Shown one piece after another: positions 1,460 through 59,200 of a stretch of DNA of 64,000 nt (positions within the stretch are counted from its first letter, which is position 1; every line of letters starts with the position of its first letter). The notes under the pieces were generated by a model. That model was not told the origin of the DNA and did no database searches. It saw only the letters and a list, made by a program, of their open reading frames with translations. Source of the stretch: Yuukianura sp. NJ FZ-2021. Its lineage: Eukaryota. Both the position numbers and the translations under genes were made by a program. The stretch spans positions 12,338,001 to 12,402,000 of the forward strand of contig CM102285.1 in NCBI GenBank assembly GCA_046563655.1, written 5' to 3'.

Positions 1460-11220
<9,761 letters not shown>

Positions 11221-24245: not shown

Positions 24246-24873
24246 TCAACGCGACGAGGATTTCGGTTTTGGAGGAACCCATGATTCGATTTTGGGTTTT
24301 GTTGTTGTATAGGGCACGTACTGATCGGATGTCCCTGACTTGTTTTCGGTGTGGTCAATTATCCAGTCGTATTTGACTCGAGGCTTAACTGTTGGTGGTA
24401 AATCGGTTTTGTAGTGAAGCCAGCCATACCATTCAGCTGGAACCATACTTCCGTCATAGTCCACTCCATGCTTCACGTTGTAATCCACCCATCGGTTCCT
24501 CCCTATGAATTTGACATGAAATGAAACAAAAGTCACCGATTGACCTCATCCATGTAAAGCAAAGAGAAAACGTACGAAATTGGTTTCAATGTCATAATAT
24601 TGAGTTATTACCGTAGAAGTATGCGTTATTTTCGTAGTACTTGTTTCCATACTTGTCTTCTCCAATCAATGTCCCAATCTTCAGTTCTTCGGTCCTGTAA
24701 CACAGTTCAAAACATTTAAATTACTTGAACAATTAAGTTAAAACTGAAGTTAAACATTGAATTAGTAAATTTCGGACTTACCGATATAACGTTTTGAAAG
24801 AATTCCAAACTCCACCATTGGCCCTCACTATTCTAAAGAATTTCGAAACTTTATCCAAGCCAAGCAACGACAT
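24246..24873 (-). CDS. NDUFA12: NADH dehydrogenase 1 alpha subcomplex subunit 12 (3 exons)
   Basis: MSLLGLDK...[25 protein letters not shown]...GRNRWVDY...[15 protein letters not shown]...[17 protein letters not shown]. Confidence 0.95.
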
Positions 24874-25543
24874 TTTCCGACAAACGTTTAGAAAGTATCA
24901 GTAGAAATCGAATCGAAGCAATTCTTAAATTCAAATTCAAAAGAAAACAATTTTAAACTTTTTTTTTGAAATTTTGAATTTTGAAAAATATTATTTTGAA
25001 ATTGCAAATCAAAATACCACTCCCGCCTTTTTGTTTCCGTCGTGTCACGTTCGAACTTCTGCATCTCGGTTTCCACGAACAATAACTGGTAATCGTTCGG
25101 AAAAATATGGAAAGCATAATTAAAAATTATGAAAATGCAATAATTAATTAAAATTAATTAATTTGTCAAAATCTTTCTTTAAAAATTTTTGTACAAATTC
25201 TTACTTACCTTTACAAATTAATTAGTAGACGAAAGCTCAACCACAGCTACAGCGCAGCAGTGTCTCGGACACAAAACTAAAATTCCATTGTTGCTTTTAA
25301 AACAAAGCGTGGGTCAGCTTTGACACTTTAAAATTAATTAATTAATCCCCGAAAACCTCAAAAAAAAAAGAAGATTAGTCAAATTTTGACCCGGAAAAGC
25401 AACTTTACATCGAGTCAGCCAAAATTGCAAAACATACTTTTTAATTTACAAGAAACTGATTAAAACAATGTATGGTCGTAATTAAAAAGTACTGCCAAGT
25501 CCCAGCTTGGAGTTAATAAGGGTGTTGACACTTAACGACTCAT

Positions 25544-25847
25544 AACTGTGGCGGTGACTTGTGGTCCACATTCGGGGAATTACAGGCGTCTATATGTTGA
25601 CCTTAGCAATAGATTGCACTGTCCTGACCTTGAGGAAGTCCCTATGACTAAAGTGGAAGCCGAGTTGCCTATCCCTAAGTTCCCTTCGCTTCCCCAGCGA
25701 ACACCCCCCCCCTACTTCCCCTCGTCAAAATTACCATCCCCCTCCCCACGACCAACCCCCCCCCCACTAGCTATAGGGTAGGGGGTCACCGAACTCGGTA
25801 ACTAAATCGGGATTTACACCAAGTCACTGCCACTAAGTTTTTTTTTT
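25544..25847 (+). ncRNA. RNase MRP-like RNA copy 1 (S-domain deleted, C-rich P19)
   Basis: P1 GTGGCGGTGACTTG (25548-61)/CAAGTCACTGCCAC (25820-33); P2 TCCAC/GTGGA; CR-I GGAAGTCCC; P19 CCGAGTT/AACTCGG; CR-V AACTAAATCGGGATTTAC; T10 terminator; upstream PSE-like element at 25469. Confidence 0.7.
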
Positions 25848-26221
25848 GTGGAAAGTAATAGCTTAGAAATTGTAGCGTAAACGGAAAAAATATGAATCGA
25901 TTTTTGAAATTTTTTGAGATTATGAAAAATTATAAAGCTGTCACAGTAGTTTAAAATTTTTGTTAAAAATGTTTTTCCAGTAGAAGGAAAACCAGAAAAC
26001 GTCACGGGTTTTTTTTCTTCGCTAATTTTCTTCTTAATTAATTTAAAAAAAAATCATAGGTTTGACAAATACAAAACTAAATCACACATTTTACATGACA
26101 AAAGGACCAACGAACTCAACAGGAACTCATGATTTCAATTAAAGTTTTTATATGGTCAAATGTGAAAAGTACAAGTGAGAATAAGGTTGGCGTAAATTGG
26201 AACTTTTAGCGGGGAAAGTTT

Positions 26222-26562
26222 GAATGTGGAAGTGATTTGTATTCCACTTTCGGGGCATATGGGAAGTAGGGTAACCTGGTTAAGGTAACCCGCGAATAAG
26301 CACTTGACCCGGGGAAAGTCCCTAGGCATGGGGGTTAGAGATAACCTTTGGGTACTTAAGGGCTCCATTAAGCCGTGACGTTTAAGAATTGAGCTGGGAT
26401 GACCTTAAGTGGCCCATTTGCCATAGTTTCAGAACCATGTGGAAGCCTCACGATGCTCGACTGCCAAATGCCAGTGCTGACAACACCCAAAATCAAAATA
26501 AGTCTTGTTTGTGAGGTAACTAAATGGGGATTTACACCAAGTCACTTCCACTCAATTTTTTT
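26222..26562 (+). ncRNA. RNase MRP-like RNA copy 2
   Basis: P1 GTGGAAGTGATTTG/CAAGTCACTTCCAC; CR-I GGGGAAAGTCCC; P8-like GGTTA-GAGA-TAACC; CR-V AACTAAATGGGGATTTAC; T7 terminator; PSE-like element at 26149. Confidence 0.82.
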
Positions 26563-26949
26563 ACAACTATTTCCATGAAGAAAACGTAAATAAAAGCAAG
26601 AAAATTATTACCTGATGGGAAGCTAGTACAATAAAGTTTTTGCTAAAAGTTTTTTTTGGTAAAAATTTTGTTAATTTTTGCTAAAAGTTTGATCAAATCT
26701 TTACTAACTGCTTGCAGTGGAAGAAAGTAGAGACACCGAGACAGACATGACAAGTGAAAGGTTTCTCTTTTTTTTTTAAATCGGTTCACCGTAAATTTAA
26801 ATATAAATGGGTTTGACAAATAAACATGAAAAAAATGTTTTGATCACAAAAAGACTAAAAAGCTGGCGTGGTCATGCATGAGTGGAAAGCAAAAGTGAAA
26901 ATACGGTTTAGTATAAATTGGAACTTTTAGCATTTATCAGGGAAAGTTG

Positions 26950-27022
26950 GAATCTGGCGGAGATTTGTATTCCTCATTCGGGGTAAATGCATTTGGTAAG
27001 TTAGTAAATGACTTCCGGCAAA
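26950..27022 (+). pseudogene. 3'-truncated RNase MRP-like copy (degenerate promoter plus first ~70 nt)
   Basis: Degenerate PSE and TATAAAT at 26912, then a 5' segment similar to copy 5 (ATTCGGG...AGTAAATGACTT.CCGGCAAA) that stops before CR-I. Confidence 0.7.
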
Positions 27023-27209
27023 TTAAAATTAAAATTTGGCGAATTTGTAATTTTAACGAGAAGGAATACTGTATTTCGGACCAGTAAAAATTGCAAAACA
27101 TAGTTTTTAATTTAAAGGAAACTGGTTAAAACAGTGTATGGTCGTAATTAAAAAGTACAACCAAGTTCTAGCTTGGTGTTAATAAGGGAGTTGACACTTA
27201 AGGGTCCTT

Positions 27210-27715
27210 AAGTGTGGGGGTGACGGGTGGTCCACTTTCAGGGATTTACAAAGCTGCCTATTGCAAACCGCGTAGGCAGCGCAGTTCTGCCTGTTGTTGT
27301 CCTGAGGAAGTCCCCAGGCATAGAGGTGTAGCATACCCTGGGCCCTTAAAGGGTCCAGTCCACTTGACTTGGACTCCATAGGCTATGACAATTAGCAGCG
27401 GGTGTTAATTGAGCTGGGAAGTCTAAGTGGTGGAATTGCCTTAGTTGAGACTAATGTGGAAGCCGAGTTGCCCACGTCCATCATCGAGAAACGGCCGGAC
27501 CGGCCTAGGCTAGGAGGAACTAGGAAGATCCTAGGTGGAATGCTTAGGGCTAGTACAGTTCCTCTCCCTAAGTACCCTCCCCTTCGTCCAAACCACGCTG
27601 CCGAGCGTACCCCCTCCCCCCTCTGCGACAGCCGACCTGGCTATAGGGTAGGGGACACCGCACTCGGTAACTAAATGGGGATTTACACCAAGTCACTTCC
27701 ACTCAATTTTTTTTT
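27210..27715 (+). ncRNA. RNase MRP-like RNA copy 3 (longest, 205-nt P19 domain)
   Basis: P1 with G.U pairs; P3 TCAGG/CCTGA; CR-I GGAAGTCCCC; P19 CCGAGT/ACTCGG; CR-V; T9 terminator; PSE-like element at 27135. Confidence 0.78.
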
Positions 27716-28106
27716 CCAAAATTTTGACGTAAACGTCGCAGCAACAAACTGAAAAATTACGGTACGGAACAAACTGACGGTAAACTTGCACAAGACTTTT
27801 TAAAGAATTAAATACATATATGAATCAAAAATTTGGTAAAAGCTGCAGTAAGAAAAAGCGGAAAGATAGAAATGGCACGCCCAACTTTTTTTCTTCGTCG
27901 ATAGTTTTGTTCTTTAGCGTAAATTAAAATATAATTATGGGGTTCACAAATATGAATAGAAAATTAAATTCTAAATTTTCGATGACAAAAGTACTGCGGA
28001 ACTCAACAAAAATGGTTTTTTAATTAAAGTTTGTGTATGGTCGTATGTTAAAAGTGCAAATGAAAATAAAGTTGGTGTAAATTGGAACTTTCAGCGAGGA
28101 AAGTTT

Positions 28107-28492
28107 GAATGTGGAGGTGATTTGTGGTCCACTTTCGGGGCAATTGCGATGAAAGGAAGCCCAGTAGGGAAACCTAGCACTTGACCCGGGGAAAGTCCCT
28201 AGGCATGGGGGTTAGAGATAACCTTTGGGTACTTAAGGGGTCCATTAAGCCGTGACATTAAGAATTGAGCTGGGATGACCTTAAGTAGTCCACATCACAT
28301 GCCATAGTGTCAGAACCATGTGGAAGCCTCACGATGCTCGATTGCCATTACAAACAACAACCAAACACCAAACTCACTGAACTCACGTTCAGTGAATACA
28401 AAACTCACGTCAGTGAATACTACAAAACACAGTCTTGTTAGTGAGGTAACTAAATGGGGATTTACACCAAGTCACTTCCACTCAATTTTTTT
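28107..28492 (+). ncRNA. RNase MRP-like RNA copy 4
   Basis: Same core as copy 2; A/C-rich 120-nt P19 with an internal duplication; T7 terminator; PSE-like element at 28034. Confidence 0.82.
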
Positions 28493-28902
28493 ACAACTAT
28501 TTACATGGAAAAATGCGAGATCAGAAACCAGAAAATTACCAACCGATGGCAAACTTTTTTGCTAAAAGTTTTATTAATTTTTTGCTGAAAGTTTTATTCA
28601 ATTTTTGCTAAAAGTTTGATTAAATTTTTACTGTTTGTAGTAGAAGAAAGCAGAGAAACGGAAGCGGAAACGACAGGTCAAACGATTCTCCTTTTTCAGT
28701 TCGATTCATCGCAAATTAAAATATAATTAAGGGTTTGACAAATGAGCATGCAAACTATTAATTACACCTCTTTTGACAACAAAAGGACTAAAAAGCTTAG
28801 TTAAAATGCACATTTTCAACTAAATATTGTTTATGGTCATACGTGAAAAGTGCATGTCAAAATACCATTGCTTTAAATAGGAACTTTTAACAGGGGAAGT
28901 TC

Positions 28903-29315
28903 GAGTGTGGAGGTGATTTGTGTTCCACATTCGGGTAATTGCGTAGCGAGGGTTTAGTCAGTAAATGACTTGCCGGCAAAACTAACCCGAGGACAGTCCC
29001 CAGGCATGGGGGTTAGGGATAACCTTGGGGACACTAAGGACACTAGTTAAGCTGGGACACTTTACGTTGAGCTGGGTGACCCTTAAGTGGCCCACTTGCC
29101 ATTGCACAGGACGATGTGGAAGCCTTACGATGCATGGTGACGGGTGCTCACTGAAGGGGCAGGGTGCACTTGTGGGGATTGCCGTGCCTCACATCTGTGA
29201 AGTGCGGAAGTCGGCGTACGACGACTTCCATCACGAGGCCTTTGTGCAAGGGAGGTCTCTATTCGTGAGGCAACTCAATGGGGACTTACATCAAGTCACT
29301 TCCACTAATATTTTT
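28903..29315 (+). ncRNA. RNase MRP-like RNA copy 5
   Basis: CR-I variant GGACAGTCCCC pairs with CR-V variant TGGGGACTTAC; structured 148-nt P19; T5 terminator; PSE-like element at 28830. Confidence 0.8.
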
Positions 29316-29387
29316 GCAATTTAAAAATTTTAGAAACTATAAATATGTGTATTAGTTACAACTTTATAGAAAAAGTGAAAGCTTTAC

Positions 29388-29587
29388 TATAGTTGGGGCA
29401 ACCAAAATAGACCCAAGTTTTTCTAGAGGATACTCGCACTCACGCCCTTCTCCAACTGGCACCCGCTTCTCCACTCAACTCCAAAATGAACCTCCCATCT
29501 AAGAAGAGACTGCCAGAAGCTTTACAGAGGTGTGAGTGCGAGTATCCTCTAGAAAAACTTGGGTCTATTTTGGTTGCCCCAACTATA
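29388..29587. mobile_element. Tc1/mariner-like MITE with 56-bp perfect inverted arms (including TA ends)
   Basis: 29388-29443 is the exact reverse complement of 29532-29587. It begins and ends with TA (probable TSD) and has an 88-bp non-coding core. Confidence 0.8.
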
Positions 29588-29863
29588 CAAATAAATATAA
29601 TACCCCAACTATACATATACAAAGAAACACCTTTACTTTCCTTTTCACCACACAGATCTATTAGACGCAAATAGAAAATTCAAACAATTGGAAAAATTTA
29701 TAATTGAAAAGTTAGCTTTTTTCTTTCACGCAAAGAAAGAAAAGTTAGTAGATTCTTTCACGGACTAGCCTCAGTCTCTTTTAAATGTAGTGGATGGTCG
29801 TCTGTGAAAAGTACATGTAAAGATTCCACTGGTTTAATTACGAACTTTTATCAGGGAAAGTTT

Positions 29864-30139
29864 GAGTGTGGAAGTGACTTGTGTTCCATGTTCGGGGCAG
29901 GCTCTGATACTGCGAACTTTCCAGTAGAGAAAGTTTGCTGGAAATTGACCCGAGGAAAGTCCCCAGGCATGGGATTAGAGATAATCTTGGGGGGTACTTA
30001 AGGGTTCCGCTAAGCTGTGATATGCAAATTGAGCTGGGGTGACCTTAAGTGGACCATTTGCCATAGTTAATACACATGTGGAAGCCTAAAGAAGGTAACT
30101 GAATGGGGATTTACACCAAGTCACTTCCACTCAATTTTT
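29864..30139 (+). ncRNA. RNase MRP-like RNA copy 6 (minimal P19)
   Basis: Perfect P1 GTGGAAGTGACTTG/CAAGTCACTTCCAC; CR-I GGAAAGTCCCC; P8-like GATTA-GAGA-TAATC; P19 CCT-AAAGA-AGG; T5 terminator; PSE-like element at 29791. Confidence 0.83.
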
Positions 30140-30454
30140 ATAAAATTGTTTTCATGAATGAGAATTAGCGAAAAAGTGAGAAAATTATCAACCGGCGATT
30201 AACTAAATGATTTCCAAAGTTTCTTTTTCTCAAAATATCTTTTTCGTAATAAATTAAAACTAACAGTGAGCTTATAACAAATAATATTACAGAAATAATA
30301 TAAATATTACAGAAACATTGTAATTAAATTGTCTAATCCGGACCAGAGTTTGATTAAAAAGCATATTTTCATTAAGTTCGGTGTATGGGCATCAGTGGAA
30401 AGTACAGGTGAAAATGACGCTGGGATAAATAAGAATTGAAAGCGTGAAAAATCT

Positions 30455-30787
30455 GAATGTGAAAGTGACTTGTGTTCCACTAACGGGGCAATTGCATGGA
30501 TCGGGATCAAGTGCCATTGAGTGGCTCTCGATCCGTGCAACGACTCCGAGGAAGGTCCCCAGGCATGGAGGTTAGAGATAACCTTGGAGACACTTAAGGG
30601 CACCACTTAAGCTGGGACACTAAGTTGAGCTGGGTGACCATTAAGTGGCCCGCTTGCCATTGCACAGGAAGTTGTGGAAGCTTCACGACGTCAGTGAAGT
30701 CGAAAGTTAATCGGCTTCTCGACTGGTTTAAATCGTGATGGGTAACTCAATGGGGATTCACACCATGTCACTTTCTATTTAATTTTT
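30455..30787 (+). ncRNA. RNase MRP-like RNA copy 7
   Basis: P1 GAAAGTGAC/GTCACTTTC; 15-bp P3 extension TTGCATGGATCGGGA/TCTCGATCCGTGCAA; CR-I GGAAGGTCCCC; CR-V AACTCAATGGGGATTCAC; T5 terminator; PSE-like element at 30382. Confidence 0.8.
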
Positions 30788-31004
30788 GTTAAATTAAGAC
30801 TATAATAAATGAAACAAAAACTCAAAGTTTAAAGTGCATCACATTCACAATTTCAAAGTTTTTTTTTGCAAGGACTTTTGGGAATAGGGCGAACAAATCA
30901 ATTATTATAAATTATAAAAATATAGTAGGAAATGAAATTTCAACATAAAATGGCATATTATCTTAAGGTTCATAGTCCAAAGATGCATATTAAATTAAAT
31001 ATTG

Positions 31005-31051
31005 TGTATGGTCATATGTGAAAAGTACAGGTGAGGATTGCTGATTATAAA
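31005..31051 (+). promoter_or_regulatory. Type-3 Pol III promoter (PSE-like 25-mer plus TATA); representative copy, repeated before every RNA in the array
   Basis: Consensus TGTATGGTCRTNNGTGAAAAGTACA starts 76-79 bp before the P1 helix in all nine copies. An AT-rich TATA-like box lies ~30 bp before the inferred start. Confidence 0.75.
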
Positions 31052-31076
31052 GTAGGATCTCAAAGCAGCGAAATTT

Positions 31077-31498
31077 AAGTGTGGATGTGACTTGTGTTCC
31101 ACTTTCGGGGTATGGGCGTCTGGGCCAAGGATTGCCCTGTAGAGGCAATCTTCTGCTGTCGGACGCCAAAAACCCGGGGAAAGTCCCCAGGCAAGGGGGT
31201 TAGAGATAACCTTGGGACACTTAAGGGCTCCATTAAGCTGGGACACTTAAAGTTGAGCTGGGATGACCTTAAGTGGCCCACTTGCCATAGCACAGGACGA
31301 TGTGGAAGCCTCACGATGCATGGTGATGGGTGCTCACCGTAGAGGCACGGGGCATCTGTGGGAAGTACCGTGCCTTCCCGGATAGAAGATTTAAGAGACG
31401 GCTTGCCGTCTTAAGACCTTGGCCTTCGGGTAAAGAGGTCTGTATTCGTGAGGTAACTAAATGGGGATTTACATCAAGTCACGTCCACTTAATTTTTT
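31077..31498 (+). ncRNA. RNase MRP-like RNA copy 8
   Basis: P1 GTGGATGTGACTTG/CAAGTCACGTCCAC; CR-I GGGGAAAGTCCCC; multi-hairpin 145-nt P19; T6 terminator; PSE-like element at 31005 and TATAAA at 31046. Confidence 0.83.
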
Positions 31499-31998
31499 GA
31501 AAAAGTTAAACAAAGTTAAAAAAAATTTCATTTTCTAACTAAAAGTAAAATATTAACTATTTTAACTAATATTAACTATTTTACTTTTACCCTCATTAAA
31601 AAATGAAATTTTTTAACTTGCCAATTCGGGTTAATTGAATTTACTATTTTTAAAGCACAAAATGAAAGGCGGAAGGCCCATTTATGTTTTTCTTTCTTTG
31701 GAGCGGCTGTTATGTAATGAAAATCAAGTGCTATGCAAAATGCAAGGGGAGATTTTACTGGTAGAAAATAAAAATAACCTTGTTAAAGGTAATTTACTTG
31801 AAACTGTACCATTTAATTAAAATTATTTTTAAACAAATTCATAAAAATAAGAATAGAAAGTTTCTGCTGAGTGGAATTAAAGTTAAGCAAGAAAGGTCAA
31901 GTCAGGTCAATTTGTCAAAAGCTATGTATGGTCATGCAGGGAAAGTCAGTGAAGTGTATGTGTTGGTACAAATAGGACAGGGAGAAAAGGTGAAACTA

Positions 31999-32273
31999 AA
32001 ATGGAAGTGACCTGTGTTCCACTTTCGGGTTGTTGTCTAACAGTCATGTGTTGACAGTTGGGTTAACCTGGGGAAAGTCCCCGGGCATCTAGGTAGAAAT
32101 ACCCTGGACACTCCGTGTTCAGCCCAATCACCCCAATGCTTTCTTATAGGCTGGGACAAATAATTGAGCCGGGAAGATGTGGGTGTAGGGTTAGCCATAG
32201 CACAGTTTAATGTGGAAGCCTTTAATTAGGTAACTCAATGGGGATTATACCAGGTCAATTCCATTAATTTTTT
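31999..32273 (+). ncRNA. RNase MRP-like RNA copy 9 (most divergent from the others, closest to canonical size)
   Basis: P1 ATGGAAGTGACCTG/CAGGTCAATTCCAT; CR-I GGGGAAAGTCCCCGG; P8-like GGTA-GAAA-TACC; CR-V AACTCAATGGGGATTAT; T6 terminator; PSE-like element at 31925. Confidence 0.82.
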
Positions 32274-32744
32274 GAACTAACACGGTATTTAACGGGAAAA
32301 GCGATTCATGACTTACGTTTTCGGGGTATGGCGGCGTCCTTGGATTGTCGCGAAGGTTTAACAATCCATGTCATAGCACATTGAAGTTGAAGTCGATGTG
32401 TTGATGTTGCAGCAGAATTTCAGGAAACTGGAAAAGTTGACGCGCCCACAAAAAAAATTGAGATGCTGAAGTTCGCTTAACCGAATTTAAACGTGTTTGT
32501 TGGATAACGCATATATCAACATGGAGTTTAATTTAAATTCGGTATTAAATGAATTAACTAACTAAAAATGTTAAAGATCTTACAGGTAGGTGTATCGTTA
32601 CAAACAAACACATGCTCTCAGTCTCTGTGAACAAAAACAAACGCACAAAATTAGTCCAAAATCCAACAATGGCGAAGTTCTAGAAAACGTTAGTTTCAAA
32701 CGTTTCTTGAAGGAGGAAAAACTAACATTTACGAACAGGAACTC

Positions 32745-34250
32745 TTAGCTCTGGATAATTTGTGTCGTAGAGGTTTGGCCAGGGGATGACATTATTGTGC
32801 CTGTTGCTGGCCCTGCCTGGATCACCACTTGTTGATTGCCTTGTCCTCCAGTGGCTCCCTGGAGTTGCATTCGCAGCATCTGCATTTGGTTAGCTGTCAG
32901 TTGGATTGGAACGTTCTGAACTTCTCCGTTGGGTCCAATAACTTGTTGAACCAATTGCAAACTTTGCTGCTGCGGTTGTGGTGCTGTCTGGAACTACAGA
33001 AAGAGGAAAAGAAAAAGATGTAAGTTTGGTATCCAGAATACGGATTGCAATTAATTCAATAGTTGCTGGATTATTGATATTTACCTGAGTACCACCAAGT
33101 AAAACAGTCTGTTGCGGTGCAGTGACCATTGGCTGCTGCAAAACCTAAAAAAATATAAATAATTTAGCACTGAAAACACAAAAACTTTCAGAGAAAAAAA
33201 TGTTTTGGTTAAATTGCGTCCCTAACCTGCCCAGCTCCAGATTGAACCAATTGGTAAGTCTGGAGTCCATTCGGGAGCGTCTGCTGGAGAACTTGCATCC
33301 CACCGGTAGTTGCTTGCTGCAACTGCAAAGCGGTTTGCTGGTGAGCTGCTAACTGAAGGTAGTACTGAAGCTGCAAATATAAAGGAAAACGCGATTTTTT
33401 GTTTATAAGCACTGAGACTTCCAAATAAATACATAAATGGCACAGTGAGTTAGTACTGCGTATCTTACCGGATCAGTGCCAAGAACATTGATTGTTGTTT
33501 TAGTGTCGTCCTTCTTAGCTGGTTTCAATTCATCCCTTGGAACAATGTCGATCAGAAAGTCGAACTGATCGTACTTGGTTATGGCCATTGCGATATCGTT
33601 TCTCTAAAAAAAATCAAAAGAAAATGAAAATTCAATTTCAAATCTGTTTGCTATGATTATTACAGAAAATGAAGATTCATACCTGGAGCGTCCTACGTTT
33701 ATTGTCTTCCGTGTGAATCCAAGCCCTAAGAGTAAGTTCATGTATAAATATTTCGGCAGCTTTTGCAAATAACACGGGCGCTTCAGCACTGATCATCTTC
33801 ACATCCTCGTCCAACTTCATTATTTTCTTGATACGGGCCAGTGGAAGTTCTTGTACCCGTAAATCACTCTGCAAAAATCAAATTAGATTAATCAGAAACG
33901 GAAAGACAAGGTGACATTGACATGAACTAGTCCATGCATCTTTGACGCCGGCACGGCACTTGTCGGAAACAAAGGTCACGACCTTGTCACAGCTGTTCCT
34001 TGATGTTCAACAAATCTACCGCCAAACATTACAACGAGAACGACGATGAGAATCAACTAACTATAGTTATCAATATCGTCTCTCGTCAGAACATTTATTT
34101 TACGAAAGTTTATGATTTACTTACGTGTGTCAGGTTCTTGACTTCCTTTGTGACAGTTGGCCAAAAGTCTTTAAGTTGTTGATGAGCATCGTTCTGCTGG
34201 TTTTGCTGGGATGTTCCGGCAGCTGATGTCGACGGTGTAGGCTGTGCCAT
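32745..34250 (-). CDS. NFYC: Nuclear transcription factor Y subunit gamma
   Basis: [57 protein letters not shown]...[17 protein letters not shown] histone fold, followed by a Q-rich tail. ATG at 34250 (MAQPTPS...FWP). Confidence 0.95.
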
Positions 34251-34886: not shown

Positions 34887-37296
34887 ATGGCAGAGTCGTA
34901 CGATAACTTGATATTGTAAGACTTTTGTTTTTGGATGTTTTTGCGATTTCCAGTTTGCCACTGTTCGCTGTATTTAAACTCATGAATTTTTTGTTTTAGG
35001 GTGGAAACTGCTGATAAACTGTTTATACATCCTGGGAATCAGACGAGTAGTTCAAGGTTTCTGGTGATTAATCGTGTAACAGATGAAATTAGTTTAGGAA
35101 GTAAGACTTCATTCACGTTCGATTGTTGAATTGGGTAGGATCGATGATAATGTTTTCTTCTGCTTCTTTTCAGCGGACATCAATACGATTCCCGATTCCG
35201 GGCGGATACGAACGGAGTATATAGCTGGTGTAATTGGTGTAATACGGCTAATTGCTGGTCCGTATTTAGTTCTTGTCAAGACAGCTACGCGTGTTGGTGA
35301 ATTCAATAGTCATGTTATTTGGCAAATGAAACAGCATGAAGTTATTCCATTCAAGAGATCAGATCTGCACATGACAGTTCAGCAGGTAGGACGATCCGAA
35401 CAATCCTTGTAGAAAAGTGGATCAATTCAATTAAAGGAAGAAGTAATTAAGTTTTGTTATTTTCTTTTAGCGCCAATTCAACCAATCGTACCTGGAAATG
35501 CTTGACTCTGTACTATCTACACCTTACTTCTATTACTCCCATACTTACGACCTCAGCCACAATTTACAGTCGCTGAATTTCAATTCTCCGGATTTCTTCC
35601 AGGTATGGGTTTACACTGAAGCGTGCAGTGAATTTCATAATCGCTATGTTTTATATTCGTAGCAATCTGTAGTTGCACGGGCAGACGAAAGATACGTTTG
35701 GAATACATCACTTATCCGAGAATTCCCGGCCAAATCCGAATTCCATAACTTTTGCATCGCGCTGATTCATGGATGTAAGTTTCAAGTGTTTTCACTTTTC
35801 AACTGCTGTATTCCTCACTTTTTGTGATTGTTTTGATATTTTTAGTTGTGTCTATAAGTGATGTGACTGTGAATTCTCGTCGGCTCAAGCTAATACTCAT
35901 CTCTCGTCGCAGTTCCCGACGTCCAGGCACTCGGTACTTCTCTCGGGGAATTGATTCCGACGGCAGTGTTTCAAATTTTGTAGAAACGGAGCAGATCGTG
36001 GACTGTAGCGGCGAAATGTCATCTTTTGTTCAAATTCGCGGCTCTATTCCACTGTACTGGACACAGAAGCCTAACCTACGTTACAAACCCAAACCCACCG
36101 TGGTGCCAGCCAATCATTCCGATGCATTTGCGAAGCATTTTGAAGACCTTGTTCTACGTTATAACCGGATCGTGTGTATTGACCTTGTGAACCAAACAGG
36201 ATCAGAAGCAGTACTCGAGACAGCATTTAGCCAACAAGTTCAGTCTGCCGGCCTACCCAATATTAGATACGAAGCGTTCGACTTCCACCACGAATGTGCG
36301 AATATGAAATGGCACCGTCTTGACATCCTCACCAATCGCCTAACAAATGAACTGGACGATTTTGGATATTTTCTGCAACTAAGAGGTCAGAGGCAGCAGT
36401 CGCAAGAAGGCATTTTCAGAACCAATTGTATTGACTGTCTCGACCGAACTAACGTCGTACAGGGCATGCTGGCGAAAATCAATTTAGAAAAAGTTCTTCA
36501 AGTAAGTGCAAAATTCGTTGATTTCACGCTTTTTCTTTATAAGTTATGGAAAATGGTGATAATGATAATTTTTCTTTGCCAATTTCTCCAGAGATTTGGA
36601 ATTCTTCGTGACCATGAGAAAATCTCGGATCACTCGCACTTTGAATATTTGTTCAAAAACGTTTGGGCTGACAACGGAGACATTGTGAGCATTGAGTATT
36701 CTGGAACGGGTGCACTGAAAAGTGATTTTACAAGAACCGGAAAGCGGAACTTCGCTGGAGTTATGCGGGACGGGTACAACTCTGGCGTCAGATACTTAAA
36801 AAATAATTTCAGTGATGGACATAGACAGGTTCGTGAAGCTTCGATCTCCATTTGCATTTCCATTCCAAATTATTGAATTATGTTAACAATGGTTTCTGTT
36901 TTTGTGGTAGGATGCTATCGATTTGTTTCTTGGCAACTACTCGGTTGATTCAGACGAAGGTAACGCTGTTGTCTGCCCACTGGATAAAAATCGTGATTGG
37001 AAATTCTATTCGGTATAAAATCAACTTGCCTTCGATTTAAATCGATCAGAACGCTAAAGTTGAAGCACTTATTGATTGTATTTCTTGAATTTCAGCTTCC
37101 ACTGCTCCTTTTGGTATCGCTGATAATGACGACCATGCTGGCAATTCTTCCAGCGGAGTACAGCACGGAGAATTTGATGTACCTTCTCTTTTGGGGATCG
37201 ATGTTTCTTGCGTCTGGTGCAGTAATTCTCGCTTTCGGAAGAGACTATGTGGATAACCCTGTGTTATGTCCAGGAAACGACCCGACGGACCATTGA
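34887..37296 (+). CDS. SACM1L: Phosphatidylinositide phosphatase SAC1
   Basis: LISRRS...GTRYFSRGID...NFVETEQ, SFVQIRGSIPLYW, catalytic RTNCIDCLDRTNVVQ, YSGTGALKSDFTRTGKR, and two C-terminal TM helices. Confidence 0.95.
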
Positions 37297-44016: not shown

Positions 44017-46203
44017 TTAAATTGTGTCGATTCTTTTCTTGAGATTGTACATTTTGAGCAACATGGCTGCAATAATCTGTAAATCAATCCATCATTGTTC
44101 AATGAACCAAAAATTCATAAAATCAGAACATTTGAGAATAAGCCGGAAATTGAATCGCAGTTACTTACGACTAGTGTCGCTAATCCAATAATGAACAGCG
44201 TTCCCATACGAAATCCAACTTCGTCGTACAAGATGCCTGACACGGTGGGTCCAATGGTATTTCCCAAAGAAAATGTAGCAATGTACAAACTGGACACCAA
44301 GCCGTAAGTGCTTGAGTCATCAGGAAATCCTTCCGCACTAATCAAAAACTACTGTTGAATTTTTTCAAACTATTTTTTTTTTGAAAAATACAGCTGAATT
44401 AAATATTGCAATTCTTACATCGCTGCCTCCAGTGCATGGTGGTAAGCAGTCATAATCGCACCACCAATTCCAATGTTCATCACAGAGTGACCTACAAATC
44501 CTGTCCAGGCAGCACTGGCAAAATAAATACAAAATTTTGAAAATTCTACATTAAAATTTTCAATTTTTGAATTTTCAAATTGATTGAAAATTTTTGATGT
44601 TACGTACGATTCATAAGGAATGAATGGCAGTGGACCAAGGAACGAGTATCCGACAATCAGAATCAGTGCAGCGATCATCATAATGTTGGATTTGGAAATG
44701 ATGCGATGATCTGCCAGGTAGCCCCAAAGTGGACAAAATACTGTATACACGGCAGTACCGCTTGAAAATAAAGCTCCCATTAAACTTGCACTGAGGTAAC
44801 TGTACTGAAATTTTGAAAATCCACAAATTAGACATTTGGCATCATCCAGGACCTTTGACCTTTTGATTACGTGAAGTGAAAGTGTAGCAGTAACAAATCC
44901 GATTGAAGCTGATGTCGTTGACAAGCTAAAAATGACTAGCAGAACTGTCGGAATGGTCAGCAGCTTTCGAAAACCTGGACGACCAATCCCCGGAAGTGTT
45001 TGACTGTCAGCTACTTCCGAATCATCAGAATTCAGCGTTTCAGCGCTGACGGAGTTCCGCTGTACTTTGGGCACAAAGAGGAAAATTGCTACACCAGATG
45101 CAATGATACAGAATCCTAAAATTGCGTAGGTCATGGTGAATCCTATGGTCTATCAAAACAAAATTTGAAGTACATAAAGAAATTTTGAAAACCTAATTTT
45201 CAGAGTTTCGAAAAATTTGAAAAATTCTTTCTTTTTAACTCACTTCCATAAGGATTCCACATACAGCAGGACCAAGAATTGCTCCAATTCCGAAAAATAC
45301 TTCGAAAATTGCCTAAAATATTAAAAAAAAAATGAGAATCTTTTTGCAATTAATTTGGAATTTTGAATAATTTTGACTAGACAAAATTACGACTGCTGTT
45401 GAGATTAATCCAGGAGCCTCCATGGAGTAAATTGTGAAACATGCTGGATAGATTCCTCCATCGAAAATTCCAGTTACGACTCTCACTAAAATTGACGCTC
45501 CTACGAACAACGTCCGATTTTGTATCAACGCGGTGCATCTGTTTTGAAAAACGAAAAACAACTACTTTGAAAAAAAAAACATGTTACATTTAAAAAAAAA
45601 ACAACTAATTTAACACCGAAAATTCTTACCCGAATAATACAGCACAAATTCCAATTCCTAGAAACGAAATTGTAACAACCCTTTGCGGTCCAATTGTGTT
45701 TAGCTAAACCGAAAATCAAATAGTATTTTTCGAACCTTCAGCAAAATTTTGTTTTAAAACTTTCAAAATTTCAATTTTTCTGAAAAGCTTACCAGTTTCT
45801 TTCCATAAAGAAAAGACACGCAAAATATAGTAAAATCTTGAGATGCAAATACAATTCCAATTTCAGTTGCTGTTGCTCCTTTCTCACTTGCCTTCAAGTT
45901 CAACAAAAATTGGAATTTTCAAAATCACAAATACTCCGAACACTTCAAACAATCCAAATTTAAAGTAAAAAATCAAACTTTTAAATTTTTAGACGTTTAA
46001 CGAACCAGTGGTGGATAGAATGGGCCGCCAATGAGTACCACCGCAGCTCTGAAGATATTTGCCAATCCATAAAACGCGAAAATCACAATTTGCTTTTTCG
46101 TAAATTTCATGACGACTGCATCCTTGACACGTTTTGCTCCAGAATTTTTGGATTCCTCTGTTCGTATACTTTGCTTTACAATTTCTGTTTCCATTTCTAG
46201 CAT
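44017..46203 (-). CDS. MFS-type transporter, SLC18B1-like, multi-exon
   Basis: Multiple TM segments; GPFYP, GPAVCGILME, PLWGYLAD, FLGPLPF, GFPDDSSTYGLVSSL...LGNTIGPTVSGILYDEVGF. Confidence 0.8.
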
Positions 46204-46969: not shown

Positions 46970-49029
46970 CTAGTGATCAAAACAGAAACAGTAATTTCTG
47001 AGAAACGCTTGAACACAAGAACTTTGACCTCCATAGGAATTGACTCGATTAATTTCACCAAAAAATGACCAATCAGTTCCGTTTTCAACAAGCAGCGTCG
47101 CTTCAAACACGCCATTTCCCGGTAACGTTTCAATCATAATCAAAAGTTTATGAATTTTGGAAATTATATCATCACTTTTTTGAAAAGAATCCATTTTGAG
47201 TAAAACGTCAGCACTCAGCACTTGACTCAATTGAAGCTTAGCACACTGTCGAGATGCAGATACAATTGAATTGATTTGGTCCAGAACGACCTTTGACCCG
47301 GCTTTGGCCAACTGATGATCCAGTGGAAGTGGCTGAAAAGCAGCTCCATCTTGATCACAAATGCACCAAGTAGAGTCTATTCCAGCGTCTTCGCAATGTC
47401 TATTCCACGGAATTCGGCTGAAATGACTTCTTCCTTTACCTCTGCTATTACCATCAGGATAGACTAAACGCTTTTCATGATCCAGAAGGTCACGCAAAGT
47501 TTCGTGAAGGTCAAATGGAGAACTGAGACGTTGACGATTAACTCTAAGATTTGTGACAGCTTTGGGATATTTTTCGATAAACCATTTTGGTAAAACGAAA
47601 AACAGAAATGGCATTTTCACTTCCAGTGCTCCTTGTTTCGTCTGTCGAAATTTTCCATAACGTTGTCCATGGTCACTCACGAAAATCAGCGCTGTCCGGG
47701 TCAAGTGACCTTGACCTTCGAACCACTTCAATGCTTCTAAAAGTACTTCGTCTGCAGAACTAGGGAAATCCAATCGCTCATGAAATCCAGCAGTAGCCCA
47801 AAGGAGTTGAAAATATGGCTGGCCTAACTTGGTCATTTGATTCGCGAATTTCATAGCATAGTCTAACAACATTTCAAGGCCAAGACGCGGTCCAAAGCAA
47901 AACGGGAAACCGTTGACACCGGAGTGGCCCATTTTCCGGTCCATGAGATCCATCAAGTCACGGACATAGTCAAGTGTCGGTTTTTTACCAAATCCTTTTT
48001 TGTCATATTCAAACATGCCTTGTCGAACGATATCCTCAAGAAAACTAGTGACATAGCCTTTTGCAGCATAGTCCGACCAGATGAAGTGACATTCGTCAAA
48101 AGTACTGCCAGTAGTGGGCCAACATATGTCTTTGAGCTGGTCCACACTCTGACCTGAAAGAATTGGCACAAGATTTGGAAAAGTTTCGGAAGCTACGTTA
48201 ACATAAGATTCCATTTCAATCGCTGACAGATTCGTTTTAAGGTAGTCGTATGTCAAAGGCATGTGACGAATCAAGTTCATGTGAGACACCGAATCCAGTC
48301 CAAGCAAGATTACATTCAAAATGTTGTTGTGCTGCTGACCTTTGACCTTGCTTTCGCCCTCAAAACGCAAGAGCAGCAACATGTCAACCAGATTTTGAGC
48401 TTCCGAGTCTTTTTCATCAGAACAAAATATTGAAATGAGTTTAACTTCTCCCGAAATTGGCGTGAAATTGGCAATTAGCGGAACACAATCATCTCTGAAA
48501 ACAAATGTTTGAAAAGACAAAGATTTCTACTGTGCCAGTAGGGTAAGTTCAAAACTTAAGTTAATTATTTTCTGCTTTAATTAAAATTTAATAATATGAA
48601 GTTAACTCACAGTATCATAGGAGGAAATGCTTTGTAGCAACAGTTGAACCATCCAACTTCTTCCGGTTCACGCAGAACAACTAAATTCGAATCCAAATCA
48701 GTTCCGAAAATTTTCTTCCACCGTTGTCCCTCACAGATGACTCGGTCACTTTGCAAAAAATCATTATCCACGCCCAAAAATGCATCCAAACGAGGCAAGC
48801 GACAGGTTAAGTCATTAACCTCTATATTGCTTAGAGTTTCTTCTGAAAAGTCCACAGTAACAGTTTCAATATTCCAAGAAATCAAAAAATAACACTTACC
48901 TGACCGATTTGAGTTAAAAACCACTGATTTTCGGGAATTTGGAAAAATTGTATATAGGGTGTATAATGTCAGTAGCGCGACCAACAGTACAAAAAATGAT
49001 AATCGCCTTCCGTCAGCTTTCAGTAGCAT
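46970..49029 (-). CDS. DUF229 / alkaline-phosphatase-superfamily membrane protein (3 exons)
   Basis: N-terminal TM anchor; LNVILLGLDSVS...HMPLTY, ETFPNL, FVSDHGQRYG, RLSSPFDLHETL, RHCEDAGI...WCIC, GNGVFEAT, RVNSYG...YCFC. Confidence 0.85.
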
Positions 49030-49589: not shown

Positions 49590-50913
49590 ATGACCTCGGC
49601 AGAAACAATGAACTGGGTAGAATCGTATCTTCCCACAATAATCTACGAACACTTACAAATTTTCAACAACTCAAAAGCGGGTAACTCGGTTTTCCAAATT
49701 CCAATTTCACTTTGAAATTCGAAATTTTGTTTTCCAAGACTTTGAAAAATTTGATTCAGGAAAAGAATTCATGGCCACAATTCTTCCAGTTATTCTCATC
49801 TCATCCGTTTTTGTGGTTTACTTCTACTGGAACGTCGTCGTAATTCCAGAACTGCTTCAAACTTTTGATTTTGGTGGATTCTGCGCAGTGGCTCTGCGCA
49901 TCTTGTTTCACGGCGTTGCAGCCTACCTGTTCCATGGCATCTGTTGTCACTACTACCTTGTCATCGTCCGGAAGTCATGTTTGACGCAAGACGACTTTGT
50001 GCCTTTCACTATTGACAATTCACAGGGTCTGGTTGACGATGGACGTCAAAAGTTTTCGGATCAGTTGTCGTGCATGACGGTTTTCGAAGAAGGTGGATTA
50101 GCCCCGCCCAAAGATTCTGACCAATGGCATCCCTGCTTCGAATGTCATGCCTACGGTAATCATGTGACTCTTGACATGTCAACTGGCAACTACTAACGTT
50201 AATATCAACTTTTTGTCTCAGTTTGCCCCAAGGCGTTCCACTGTAAGGAATGTCAACGGTGTGTTCTAAGACGTGACCATCACTGCTCCTACACCAGAAC
50301 TTGCATTGGACTAGAAAATCATGTCAATTTTATTGGATTCGTTGTTCATATTTCTGTCGGCTCAACCTTGGCTTTCTTAACTGGATTTCTTCTGGATTAC
50401 CAAACTTACGTGAGCTAAATTTCAAAAAGTTAGATTCAAATTTTCAAAAATAAATTCAAAAACTTCAATTTTTGGAACCAGGGCTTGATTAACGGTGCTT
50501 GGAACATATTCAAGCCAATGGGATTCTGGGTTGGCATCATCTACGGATCAGAATTTCGGCCGCACTATGTTCTCGTCCAGTTGACTTTGGTTGGCATCCT
50601 AATTTCAATTCTCTATTTGAAAAAGTGTATCCAGATGTGTTCCAGAGGTCAAACTTGTTTTGAAGTCAAGCGTGAAACTTACCTCAAATTGGCCAGCCCA
50701 GACTCATCTTACTACAAATTTGAACAATTCCTTGGACCGAATGCGATTTTCAAAATTTTGTTTCCGCTTTACCGCGGTACAACTTCCGCAGCAGCGTCGA
50801 CGTCCAATGATCGCCGTGGATTCATCGATGGATTTAATTCGTTTAAAGAAAGTTCAAACCAAAAGGTTTGTGTTTCACTTTGCACTGAGCAAAACACACC
50901 ACAATGGTTGTAA
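49590..50913 (+). CDS. DHHC palmitoyltransferase (4 exons)
   Basis: HPCFECHAY|VCPKAFHCKECQRCVLRRDHHCSYTRTCIGLENH cysteine-rich DHHC domain, flanking TM helices and a GQTCFE (TTxE-like) motif. Confidence 0.85.
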
Positions 50914-56289: not shown

Positions 56290-59200
56290 TTAAAGCTCGT
56301 ACACATCCCTCTGTTTGTAGTTCATCCGAAGTGGACTACATTTGATATTAAATCGAGTCTGTAGAGTTGAAGAAGCCACTTCATTACTTCCTCCTGTTGA
56401 TGAACTGTACATGTTATATCCCGGAATAATATGAACACGAACATCACTTCCAGCTCTCAATGGATCTCTTGGTCTCCGGGTCAGAGCCACCGAAGTTTTA
56501 CAGCAACAGTAATGAAATAACTGGACATAGCACCGTCGAAAGTCGCGATTCGCCAAGAGATTCACAACACTTGACAAGCAGGAGGGAAGAATAGCTGGCC
56601 AAATGATCAAGCGTTGCAAGTTGAGAAATGGATCGGCCGGAAGTGGGGTCACGGGAGACGTGGAGGCCGTTGTCATTAGGAAGTGGCGATGCTGGAAGTC
56701 CAGGGATCTCGTTTCTGATTGGTTAAGAATACTTAGAAGTGTTGCAACAAAGGACGGAAGCCATATAAGAAGTCGCACAAGCCAGTTCCATCCGTTTGTA
56801 GCCACAAGAGCAAATTCTCTGGACGTTAAAAATGGTTTCGGTTTTTTCCAGGCTCGCATGATACAAAGTGTTTTTAGAAATCCAAATCCACCGAGGATTA
56901 CAAAAGAAAGCGTACAAATTCCATAGACGGTGAGTGATTCAAATAGGAGTTGATCATTGAGACGATGATTTGTCATAGCTGGAGGTGATTTTGGTTTCTC
57001 ACAAATTGCCACCATGATTTGTGGCATAAATAAAAAATGGACTAGGACAATAATGCCTGCCAGAAGCCAAACAGTTAGATTGAGAACCGTAACTTGCCAA
57101 ACTGAACAAATCGGTTCTTTGCGAACAAACATCGTTTGGGGAGGTAAAAGTAGAAGTGATGGTGGATATGACTGATGATGGTTTTGGAAACTGGTAACAG
57201 TCTGTTGCTGAAATTGATTTGAGGAATGTGCTGTTCCAGTTTCGGATGCTGATGCTGGCATAGGGTAGTGTCCTACGTGAGAATGTTGTGAAGGAGTCTG
57301 GAACAGTTGGCGGTCTCGCTGTTGATCAGCGAGGCGTATGGATTTGAGGCGTAAAAAATTTTCAATTCCAATAATGGCTGTAAACATGGCGGCGGTGAGA
57401 CAAGACACAGAGCCAAAACCATACTGGAGTCGACAAATATTCTCTGAATCTTCCATTTCGCCGAGTACAGCTACTGAAGATGCTGGAAGAACTATGCCAG
57501 TGATAAGGAGGTCAGCTAGAGTGATGCTGGCTAGAAACGAGTTACCTGAAAATAAGGAAAGCCAAAGGTCAAAGGTCAAGCCGAGAAAATCATTCACCTG
57601 GAATACTATTTTGTTATACTTTCAGTCTTGCGTCTTTCGGCACTTCTTTTTAGGACGTCAAACGAGTAACAGAAAACATAGTTTTTAAAAAACGTCAGCA
57701 GGCAAACCTTGGCAGTGGAGAAAGTTTATCTAGCTTTGGTTGTTTTTTGAAAGCTTGAACATAGTAAAAGCCTATGTCGACAAATTTTGAAATATTCATT
57801 GCATATAAGTTGAAAGCCAGTCTCACAAAGTTCAAACATGTCAAAGGTCATTTCGTAAATAAATTTCAGATTTCGACCCACCATCCATTCATTATTCGAC
57901 AATACAGCTTTAGGCGGCTTTAGGCAAGGATTCAGAAATAAGCATTAAGGAGGTTGTCATTGATTAAGCAATTAAAAGATGAGTCGTGCTAAACCGCATC
58001 AATTTTTCATTCGGGTTCTCGGAACTTTCGAATAGAGGTGAAAGCTGTTGTTTGAAAATTCGCGTGATTTTGGTAATTTCCTGTTAAATGAGTAATAGGC
58101 TACCTGAAACAGGTTTCCAGTGATTCACGCAGTAAGAATACTTTGTGTTGTTTTCCAAAACCTCAGAAGGTACAATTATGACTAACCCTTGGATCCCAAA
58201 ATCGAAGCTATTGACTTTTCTATCCGATTCATGACAGCTTCATCTATTATTAACAAGCTTTCAAAAGCCAAAAAGTTACTGCCAAAGTTTGAACTTTTAG
58301 AGATAGAGTGCTGTGCGACAGGAAAAGGCATGACCTTTGACCTCTCTCGGGACTGTAGAGGTCACGCATGAAATTGAAAGGTCAATAATCAATATTCGAT
58401 TAATGGAAACAAGTAACCAATAAATATGTGTAAAACACGCTCCAAAATATTCAAAATTCTTTTCTGGTAAAGTTCAATGCCGGCTGAAAAAAAGCACAAA
58501 TCGGCTAAGATAAAATTTTGTAATTTTCTTTTTAATTTTTTGATTTGCCGCAGTGAAGGTAACTCCGAGATTTGTTTTAAAATCTTATGACAAAAAAAAA
58601 CTTTAAAAAGTTGATCCAATGCTAATTAATTTTTCAAAATCTCTTTTAAAAAAATGTTTTTTTTTTTAAAATGCGGACGTTTTTGTGAGGAAAATCACGG
58701 ACCAATGAGTTCCTTAACTGGAAAATCCGCACATTTTTTAAAAGTCAATTTTAAAATAATTTGCCTTTGTCTAACAAAACCTTTAGTAATGCCTCTGTGC
58801 ACTCCAGGAGCTCCAATATTTTAAAATTTCCTACTTTCCAAAAAAAGGAAAATCAAACCTTAAAAAAAAGGAGCTAGTGAAAACCGAAAGTTCCTTTAGT
58901 TGATCCACTTCTGGGAAATTTCCACTCCAAATCATTATTGCAGTCAAGTGAAAAGAGTCTTTCACCAAAAATCATTTCATTCTTCCAATTCATAATCCAG
59001 GAGTTGACTAGATCCTCGAAAGCCAAGGAAAAGTTCATGAACTTTGACATTCTCCGATTTGGCTTTCTTTTCATTAAGTTTCTGGAAGATATTTCTTTGA
59101 AATAAAAACCAGTTAAAATCTTCTCCTGAAATTGAACTGGAAGAAATGAGTTTTTCTGGTATAAAGCCATAGCGGGAAATATTGGGAATGGAATGAGGAC

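Follow-up and report, generated by a model that had tools for sequence, protein, structure and literature searches.

Between the genes NDUFA12 and NFYC of Yuukianura sp. NJ FZ-2021, which is probably a springtail or another early-branching hexapod, lie nine co-oriented tandem genes for RNAs of the RNase MRP type, accompanied by a tenth, truncated copy. They occupy positions 25472-32273 on the forward strand of a window of 64,000 nucleotides (the whole stretch analysed: assembly GCA_046563655.1, contig CM102285.1, positions 12,338,001 to 12,402,000) and were delimited by reading positions 25000-32800, by motif scans and by repeat finding. Family membership, gene signals, conservation of structure and a contrast in rate between spacers and cores are established at the level of sequence. 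We consider it probable that the interval holds a birth-and-death family of nine RNase MRP RNA genes with type 3 promoters for RNA polymerase III (Pol III), whose units U2-U8 would be transcribed, kept by selection and incorporated into variant particles.

The elements follow one another in the order P1, P2, P3 (stem, internal loop, stem), conserved region I (CR-I), the hairpin with loop L8, P19 and CR-V. A preliminary description of this DNA had reported nine forward-strand units with such ordered elements, and all of them are present where it put them; it had also noted that the first copy lacks the middle domain, and U1 indeed has no sequence between CR-I and the 3' strand of P2, and hence no specificity domain. 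Its count of nine stands for the full units but missed the truncated copy at 26954-~27067. The flanks that it had named are matched by exons with PF05071 and PF00808, both on the reverse strand. In the list below, each unit extends from a box resembling the proximal sequence element (PSE) to the terminal T run, and the RNA body from the first base of helix P1 to the last base of P1.

24246-24545, reverse strand: NDUFA12 exon, left flank (PF05071, E 2.8e-22)
25472-25847, forward strand: U1, RNA body 25548-25833 (286 nt); a reduced copy that lacks the specificity domain and has a long C-rich P19
26152-26562, forward strand: U2, RNA body 26226-26551 (326 nt); clade C, without P9 hairpin, 73-nt A/C-rich P19
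26868-27067, forward strand: truncated tenth copy, the copy itself at 26954-~27067; promoter remnant, P1 5' strand, P2 5' strand and part of P3
27138-27715, forward strand: U3, RNA body 27214-27702 (489 nt); clade B with U1, P9-like hairpin, 207-nt P19, L8 not GNRA
28037-28492, forward strand: U4, RNA body 28111-28481 (371 nt); in clade C, with U2 as its sister
28833-29315, forward strand: U5, RNA body 28907-29305 (399 nt); in clade C, P19 of 150 nt with several branches, CR-I GGACAGTCCCC
29794-30139, forward strand: U6, RNA body 29868-30130 (263 nt); the shortest copy, in clade C, with a minimal P19
30385-30787, forward strand: U7, RNA body 30459-30777 (319 nt); clade C, CR-I GGAAGGTCCCC
31008-31498, forward strand: U8, RNA body 31081-31488 (408 nt); in clade C, P19 of 147 nt with several branches
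31928-32273, forward strand: U9, RNA body 32001-32264 (264 nt); canonical RNase MRP RNA, P9 hairpin, GAAA L8
33680-33874, reverse strand: histone-fold exon of NF-Y subunit C (NFYC), right flank (PF00808, E 1.9e-15)

The RNA bodies measure 263-489 nt and have 46-55% G+C; the spacers have 24-36%. A blastn search with the units revealed no copy elsewhere in the window (0 of 156 hits outside the array).

Gene signals and family assignment

Each unit appears to be independently promoted and terminated, as had been proposed from the first inspection. The PSE-like box (ATGGKC core; consensus TgTATGGTCaT...TgaAAAGTaca) lies at -73 to -76 in all nine units (-76 in U1 and U3, -74 in U2 and U6), a TATA-like box is found near -30 in all nine, and a run of five to ten T residues begins 3-5 nt past P1, again in 9 of 9 (T10 in U1, T7 in U2, T9 in U3 and T5 in U6). 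The same PSE-like box stands at -73 in an orthologue of U9 from another species (locus L001, see below), and the excerpted text of an arthropod survey describes MRP RNA genes with PSE, TATA box and poly-T in 26 insects (PMC4287351). In the truncated copy the PSE is found at -86, additional bases separating the TATA-like box from the start.

Runs of four or more T residues are absent from the 3125 nt of RNA bodies. Shuffles matched for composition have 7.6±2.6, none of 1000 being free of such runs, and the spacers have 15.7 per kb. This absence, which extends to the long P19 inserts, fits selection for read-through by Pol III, as an indirect sign. Most copies have the appearance of live Pol III genes that encode RNAs of the MRP type. 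A conserved block (GTAAATTAAAATATAATTATGGGTTTGACAAAT-like, 60-78% identical) was also seen by repeat finding at 26032-26081, 26785-26834, 27913-27962 and 28705-28754, where it precedes U2, the truncated copy, U4 and U5, respectively, by ~120-200 nt; it could be a distal promoter element, or merely leftover spacer homology.

In a search with all Rfam families, the RNase_MRP model RF00030 matched seven of the nine units, three of them at or above its gathering score of 50 bits (U9, 82.5; U2, 53.3; U6, 52.2 bits). Four further matches are significant and fall below that score: U4, 38.5 bits (E 2e-8), U3, 31.3 (E 3.6e-6), U7, 30.3 (E 7.4e-6) and U8, 26.2 (E 1.4e-4). U1 and U5 gave no RF00030 match at E<=1. 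In the alignments to the model, P3 and P19, the hairpin that precedes CR-V, carry long insertions, and the P9 hairpin of the model is deleted in U2 and U6; we attribute the low scores to these large insertions and to the loss of P9. Annotation at the Rfam gathering score would catch three of these nine genes. No other Rfam family was significant over the array, the sole other row being a chance-level mir-722 match in a spacer (E 0.48). A combined CR-I and L8 pattern matched five times in the window versus 0.00 expected from 100 shuffles.

For the units of the array, these results answer the covariance-model check proposed beforehand, and RF00030 matches, retained fold and gene signals all support the earlier suggestion of an expanded and diversified family of RNase MRP-type RNA genes. 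Nuclear RNase P RNA was considered as an alternative assignment: of the models of its clan (CL00002), only RNase_MRP is listed for the matched units; overlapping lower-scoring matches within the clan are hidden, so that RNase P models score lower at best. Retropseudogenes or SINE-like copies were rejected on the basis of the tandem co-oriented layout, the external promoter at kept spacing, the presence of a T run instead of an A tail and the lack of any copy elsewhere in the window. A coding role of the C-rich P19 was rejected as well, the open reading frames there having no other support.

Fold and divergence of the copies

P1 is a 14-bp helix (GTGGAAGTGACTTG/CAAGTCACTTCCAC) kept in every copy, with 14 of 14 pairs in U1; both of its sides have changed at five columns, in U1, U7, U8 and U9, and U7 has a compensatory A-U. 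P2 is TTCCAC/GTGGAA. Because RNAalifold, applied to four units, chose P4 over P2 and is unable to draw pseudoknots, the MRP fold was written by hand with P4 as a pseudoknot, and its 66 pairs were counted on a nine-row MAFFT alignment with U6 as the reference. Over these pairs 92.3% of cells are paired, and 16 of the 66 have changed on both sides, versus 3.5±1.6 in 500 shuffles that leave the relatedness of the copies in (0 of 500) and 2-7 in six slid controls. By unit, the pairs kept are 66/66 in U6 (the reference), 65/66 in U2 and U8, 64/66 in U4, 61/66 in U5, 59/66 in U7, 56/63 in U9, 52/65 in U3 and 31/38 in U1, the counts for U3 and U1 being lowered by the alignment, which misplaces the middle of U1 and shifts both units by one column at the base of P3. 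By helix, paired cells amount to 95.2% in P1, 95.8% in P2, 91.1% at the base of P3 and 100% at the base of P19.

As signatures of the MRP type we used a CR-I of GAAAGUCCCC, a CR-V of AC...AAUGGGG and a P4 formed across P2. The P4 pseudoknot between CR-I and CR-V, recognized in the preliminary description as being of this type, appears to be kept: its eight pairs are formed in 95.8% of cells across the nine units, its four core C-G pairs and the P4 uridine are almost invariant, and compensatory changes occur in the fold. The uniformity that the same description ascribed to the signature elements holds in part. CR-I is exact (GGAAAGTCCC) in five of nine units and varies in U1 and U3, each with one A fewer, in U5 (GGACAGTCCCC) and in U7 (GGAAGGTCCCC). 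CR-V is AATGGGGA in eight units, U1 having AATCGGGA. The GARA-type hairpin is present in six of nine, L8 being GGGA in U5, non-GNRA in U3 and absent from U1, which has no P8. In these six units and in L001 the loop is a 4-nt GARA tetraloop, GAGA or GAAA; GARAR is the L8 consensus in the excerpted survey (PMC4287351), and its fifth position is missing even in U9 and L001.

A further conserved site, the A-AG motif that follows the specificity domain and precedes the 3' strand of P2 (AuAGUUAu in the model), which we take to be CR-IV, reads ATAG in U2, U4, U6, U8, U9 and L001, ATTG in U5 and U7, and TTAG in U3, and is lost in U1 with the region around it. All the signatures checked (CR-I, CR-V, L8 and ATAG) are thus kept in U2, U4, U6, U8 and U9. 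U1 has a shortened CR-I, GGAAGTCCCT, which ends in CCCT; its P1 still pairs perfectly, its promoter elements stand at the usual spacing and a T10 terminator is present. Together with the truncated copy, U1 looks degenerate and appears to be decaying.

The arms that project from this core are structured and variable. Distal P3 cannot be aligned between copies, yet all nine P3 regions form a stem, a loop and a second stem, with z scores of -1.3 to -4.8 against dinucleotide shuffles (-4.44 in U8); in seven of them at most 3 of 200 shuffles were as good. The six P19 arms tested gave z scores of -1.75 to -4.6, including -3.89 in U5 and -4.59 in U8. The P19 arms of these two units (~150 nt) are 66% identical and have 37 pairs in common, of which 26 are the same, 8 have changed on one side and 3 on both, and none is broken.

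The copies differ widely in sequence. Core p-distances are 0.05 between U2 and U4, 0.13 between U1 and U3, 0.12-0.24 within the group of U2 and U4-U8, and 0.23-0.31 between U9 and the others, with a maximum of 0.32. An unrooted tree, which contains one orthologue and no outgroup and so does not set the order of the duplications relative to the species split, groups U9 with L001 (99/98), U1 with U3 (96/90), U5 with U7 and U8 (96/98) and U2 with U4 (83/89), and leaves U6 alone. The P9 hairpin is present in U9, L001 and U3 and absent from U2 and U4-U8.

Homology between spacers was detected by blastn among the four left-hand spacers: U1-U2 and U3-U4 are 70.7% identical over 147 nt and U2-U3 and U4-U5 are 70.1% identical over 324 nt, with three further matches of 34-79 nt; pairs involving any of the four rightmost spacers had no detectable similarity. 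The two main matches indicate that a two-gene block was duplicated. Within it, the spacers are ~30% diverged versus 5% for the cores of U2 and U4 and 13% for those of U1 and U3, a contrast that points to purifying selection or to gene conversion limited to the cores. The truncated copy is U5-like and was cut off by the block carrying U3, which begins at 27068, the start of the upstream block common to U1 and U3; this arrangement suggests birth-and-death evolution. The spacers after U2 and U4 contain short tandem repeats whose unit is of the TTTTTGCTAAAAGTTT type, with periods of 16 and 23 (26637-26669 and 28556-28629).

An exact-pattern scan of metagenome contigs for CR-I and L8 returned a single locus, L001, of the U9 type. 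It contains a U9-like MRP RNA gene (RF00030, 101.4 bits) with the same promoter layout and, downstream on the opposite strand, NFYC histone-fold exons. The NFYC exons of the two loci are 94-98% identical in protein, 98% in the histone-fold exon of the right flank, and their DNA is 73.5% identical. U9 and the MRP gene of L001, promoters included, are 73.5% identical as well, at a core p-distance of 0.18. As a U9-like gene stands beside NFYC in both loci, U9 appears to be the ancestral, syntenic gene; judged by sequence, it is a normal MRP RNA gene of the canonical kind, and L001 is its orthologue from another species. In L001 the end of the MRP RNA gene (168-418) is ~60-70 nt from the NFYC histone-fold exon (489-593), a distance of ~1.2 kb in the window, where glutamine-rich NFYC exons intervene; the L001 gene may sit inside NFYC, or the exon layout of NFYC may differ there.

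The array is also supported by independent DNA. Contigs from one sequencing run (X1), possibly that of the source sample, have depths of 157-431 over the units, like the flanks, and contigs from another (X4), which carries a different organism label, comes from a different study and is ~2-5% diverged, cover U7, U8, U9 and the 3' end of U2. The array therefore exists in a second, slightly diverged genome, and an assembly artefact was rejected on the flank-like depth and these further copies. The X4 contigs differ at 8 of 359 positions (30365-30723, covering U7), 8 of 412 (31024-31435), 18 of 495 (31801-32295) and 16 of 347 (26516-26862), compared with 13/557 to 67/1522 in genic DNA nearby. That U7 and U8 have diverged less hints only weakly at constraint. 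At position 29889, in the 5' strand of P2 of U6, the window has T and the X1 contigs have C (TTCCAT versus TTCCAC), which turns a U-G pair into C-G. Some low-depth X1 contigs join U5 to U8 (29116/31444 and 31238/28980) or the end of U2 to the region upstream of U4 (26562/27889). They may represent variants of altered copy number produced by unequal crossing-over, or be artefacts of the assembly graph caused by shared words.

Possible roles of the divergent copies

If the array is a family of active genes, each would use a proximal element (TGTATGGTCaT...AAAGT) ~74 nt upstream and a TATA-like box ~30 nt upstream, would start its RNA with GTGG and would end in the T5-T10 terminator past P1. The RNAs would fold into the MRP catalytic domain, made of P1, P2, P3, the P4 pseudoknot between CR-I and CR-V, and P19, with a specificity domain in all but U1. 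Three classes would be distinguished: U9, as the ancestral housekeeping MRP RNA; U1 and U3, with a long C-rich P19; and U2 and U4-U8, which would have lost the P9 hairpin, several acquiring P19 expansions of up to 150 nt and all a different distal P3. We infer that U2-U8 are transcribed in full with their cores under purifying selection, and that they most likely assemble with the common P/MRP proteins into variant RNase MRP particles. The substrate-side domain would vary among such particles and might thereby give them different substrate ranges or expression, while U1 and the truncated copy would be decaying.

The placement of the variable parts can be related to the structure described in the accessible part of PMC10966300, in which P3, P2 and P19 share one coaxial stack and P8 and P9 lie in the helical core. 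Given that stacking, P19 and distal P3 would be outward-pointing sites able to grow, and the loss of P9 would be a real architectural change.

Several findings weigh against active variant particles. The gathering score was attained by only three of nine units. Signature deviations occur in U5 and U7 (CR-I, ATTG) and in U3 (TTAG, no GNRA L8), and U2 and U4-U8 lack P9. Core-limited gene conversion could mimic part of the rate contrast, and an identical 3' end, including the trailer, is common to U2, U3, U4 and U6. The P19 inserts of U2 and U4 are 67% identical and mostly unalignable, and their distal P3 differs greatly, both changing about as fast as the spacers; these inserts look neutral, and at least those expansions would then be tolerated, not functional modules of specialised RNAs. 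The pair structure in which the compensatory changes were counted was derived from these same sequences. Finally, the derived classes were not found in other species in the one exact-pattern metagenome scan, where the L001 contig starts 167 nt upstream of the gene.

Some of these observations would be expected if the intact copies made interchangeable RNase MRP RNA for processing of internal transcribed spacer 1 (ITS1), with the differences in P3, P19 and the specificity domain reflecting neutral drift tolerated by the common proteins. What is conserved is the catalytic core, the promoter spacing and the terminators, the P19 insert and distal P3 of U2 and U4 keep pace with the spacers, and MRP RNA is described as poorly conserved between animals in the part of PMC2655684 available. 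Even so, we regard such redundancy as unlikely: a whole helix, P9, is missing from one class and kept in U9, U3 and the orthologue, and in U5 and U8 an intricate P19 fold is retained, none of its 37 shared pairs being broken. Arrays kept for dosage, such as those of 5S RNA, small nuclear RNA (snRNA) and tRNA, are usually homogenised, unlike the cores here, with p-distances of 0.12-0.32.

A more economical account would leave U9 as the sole functional gene and treat U1-U8 as tandem pseudogenes that still resemble genes through conversion by their neighbours or through youth. U9 alone combines a high RF00030 score (82.5 bits) with a detected orthologue, the gathering score is missed by six of the nine units, damage is plain in U1 and in the fragment, and identical 3' ends unite U2, U3, U4 and U6. 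Relics of this kind would nonetheless hardly be expected to show compensatory changes in sixteen pairs, RNA bodies with no T4+ run where 7.6 are expected, or a PSE whose spacing is exact in 9 of 9 units and has drifted in the truly dead fragment. Duplicated spacers are ~30% diverged against 5% for the cores of U2 and U4, and conversion from U9 is unable to explain class-specific features that U9 does not have. We therefore give this account only a small chance. Smaller still is the chance that the derived copies are co-opted, non-catalytic RNAs, transcribed to provide P/MRP proteins with scaffolds or decoys, or to yield smaller RNAs from their expanded arms. The deviations in CR-I and ATAG in U5, U7 and U3, the loss of P9 in one class, P19 arms of up to 207 nt and a U1 that keeps P1, P3, P19 and its promoter without a specificity domain would all suit such a role. 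Against it stand a P4 paired in 95.8% of cells with its uridine and four C-G pairs almost invariant, and the retention of every tested signature in U2, U4, U6 and U8; nothing positive indicates another role.

Variant RNase MRP particles thus remain our preferred explanation. A bolder version of it, which we put forward tentatively and hold to be rather doubtful, is that a radiation in this hexapod lineage has given MRP RNA three or more structural classes, namely canonical, long-P19 and P9-less, co-expressed as distinct MRP-type ribonucleoproteins that use one protein set and differ in substrates or expression. If true, a ribozyme that acts in trans would in this natural case have diversified through duplication of its gene, as protein enzymes do.

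Compared with the canonical animal RNase MRP RNA (RF00030; human RMRP, Drosophila), U9 (82.5 bits) and L001 (101.4 bits) match the full model, and all units share CR-I and CR-V, the P1-P2-P3-P19 layout and the Pol III signals of PSE, TATA box and T run. The array differs in its nine divergent tandem genes, in a class without P9, in P19 arms of up to 207 nt and in a 4-nt GARA loop in place of the 5-nt GARAR. Low-copy duplicates of MRP RNA genes are described in excerpts of two sources: Arabidopsis has two, MRP1 and MRP2, both expressed and highly similar, Nicotiana three RNA species and wheat two variants (PMC3439889), and Trichoplax two loci (PMC2655684). They share with the array the presence of more than one MRP RNA gene per genome, but number two or three, whereas here there are nine, with core distances of up to 0.32 and different domain architecture. 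Local duplication of a ribozyme RNA gene of the P/MRP family is likewise known for RNase P RNA in arthropods, with a tandem pair in a Tribolium intron and several copies in crustaceans (PMC4287351, in excerpt); according to that text those copies are embedded in Pol II genes without Pol III signals, while the present ones are of the MRP type and have their own.

Variant snRNAs and other clustered families of small Pol III RNAs offer another parallel, being tandem, carrying their own PSE-type promoters and evolving by birth and death. They are not ribozymes, and in this the array, composed of RNAs of a ribozyme family, differs from the snRNA clusters, which it resembles in having tandem genes each with a PSE-type promoter.

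Full-text literature searches found no report of a large, diverged family of RNase MRP RNAs, with at most 2-3 genes per organism, which fits the earlier statement that no such system had been described. The genome paper of Holacanthella records that RNase MRP was found and says nothing more of it. At the time of the arthropod survey of P and MRP RNAs no genome from Entognatha was available, according to the excerpted text (PMC4287351), and the array fills this entognathan gap. RNase MRP RNA is an essential catalytic RNA, encoded in these sources by a single gene or by no more than two or three. Nine diverged genes that retain the catalytic core, vary in the substrate-side domain and have greatly expanded arms would provide a natural experiment on how a ribozyme tolerates or exploits duplication, and would test which parts of the RNA the common proteins need and whether alternative MRP particles exist.

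Other features of the window

No tRNA genes were found in the window. The protein sequence of a SAC1 exon is 67% identical to that of the springtail Orchesella dallaii, 73% and 70% identical to two unnamed environmental proteins and no more than 60% identical to those of other arthropods; on this single protein the host is taken to be a probable springtail or another early hexapod. Searches with Pfam on stop-to-stop open reading frames identified the following further genes.

3713-4018: FMN reductase
10849-11220: MORN-repeat protein
35779-36876: SacI-domain phosphatase
44415-45149: MFS transporter
46970-48526: DUF229
50203-50418: DHHC palmitoyltransferase
56290-57621: rhodopsin-type receptor

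The spacer between U5 and U6 also contains an insertion outside the gene family, which resembles a miniature inverted-repeat transposable element (MITE).

29388-29587, no strand assigned: MITE-like insertion with 59-nt terminal inverted repeats, 98% complementary, and 82 nt between them

Contig depth at this element is ~3182, compared with ~200 around it, which indicates that it is a multi-copy repeat in this genome.

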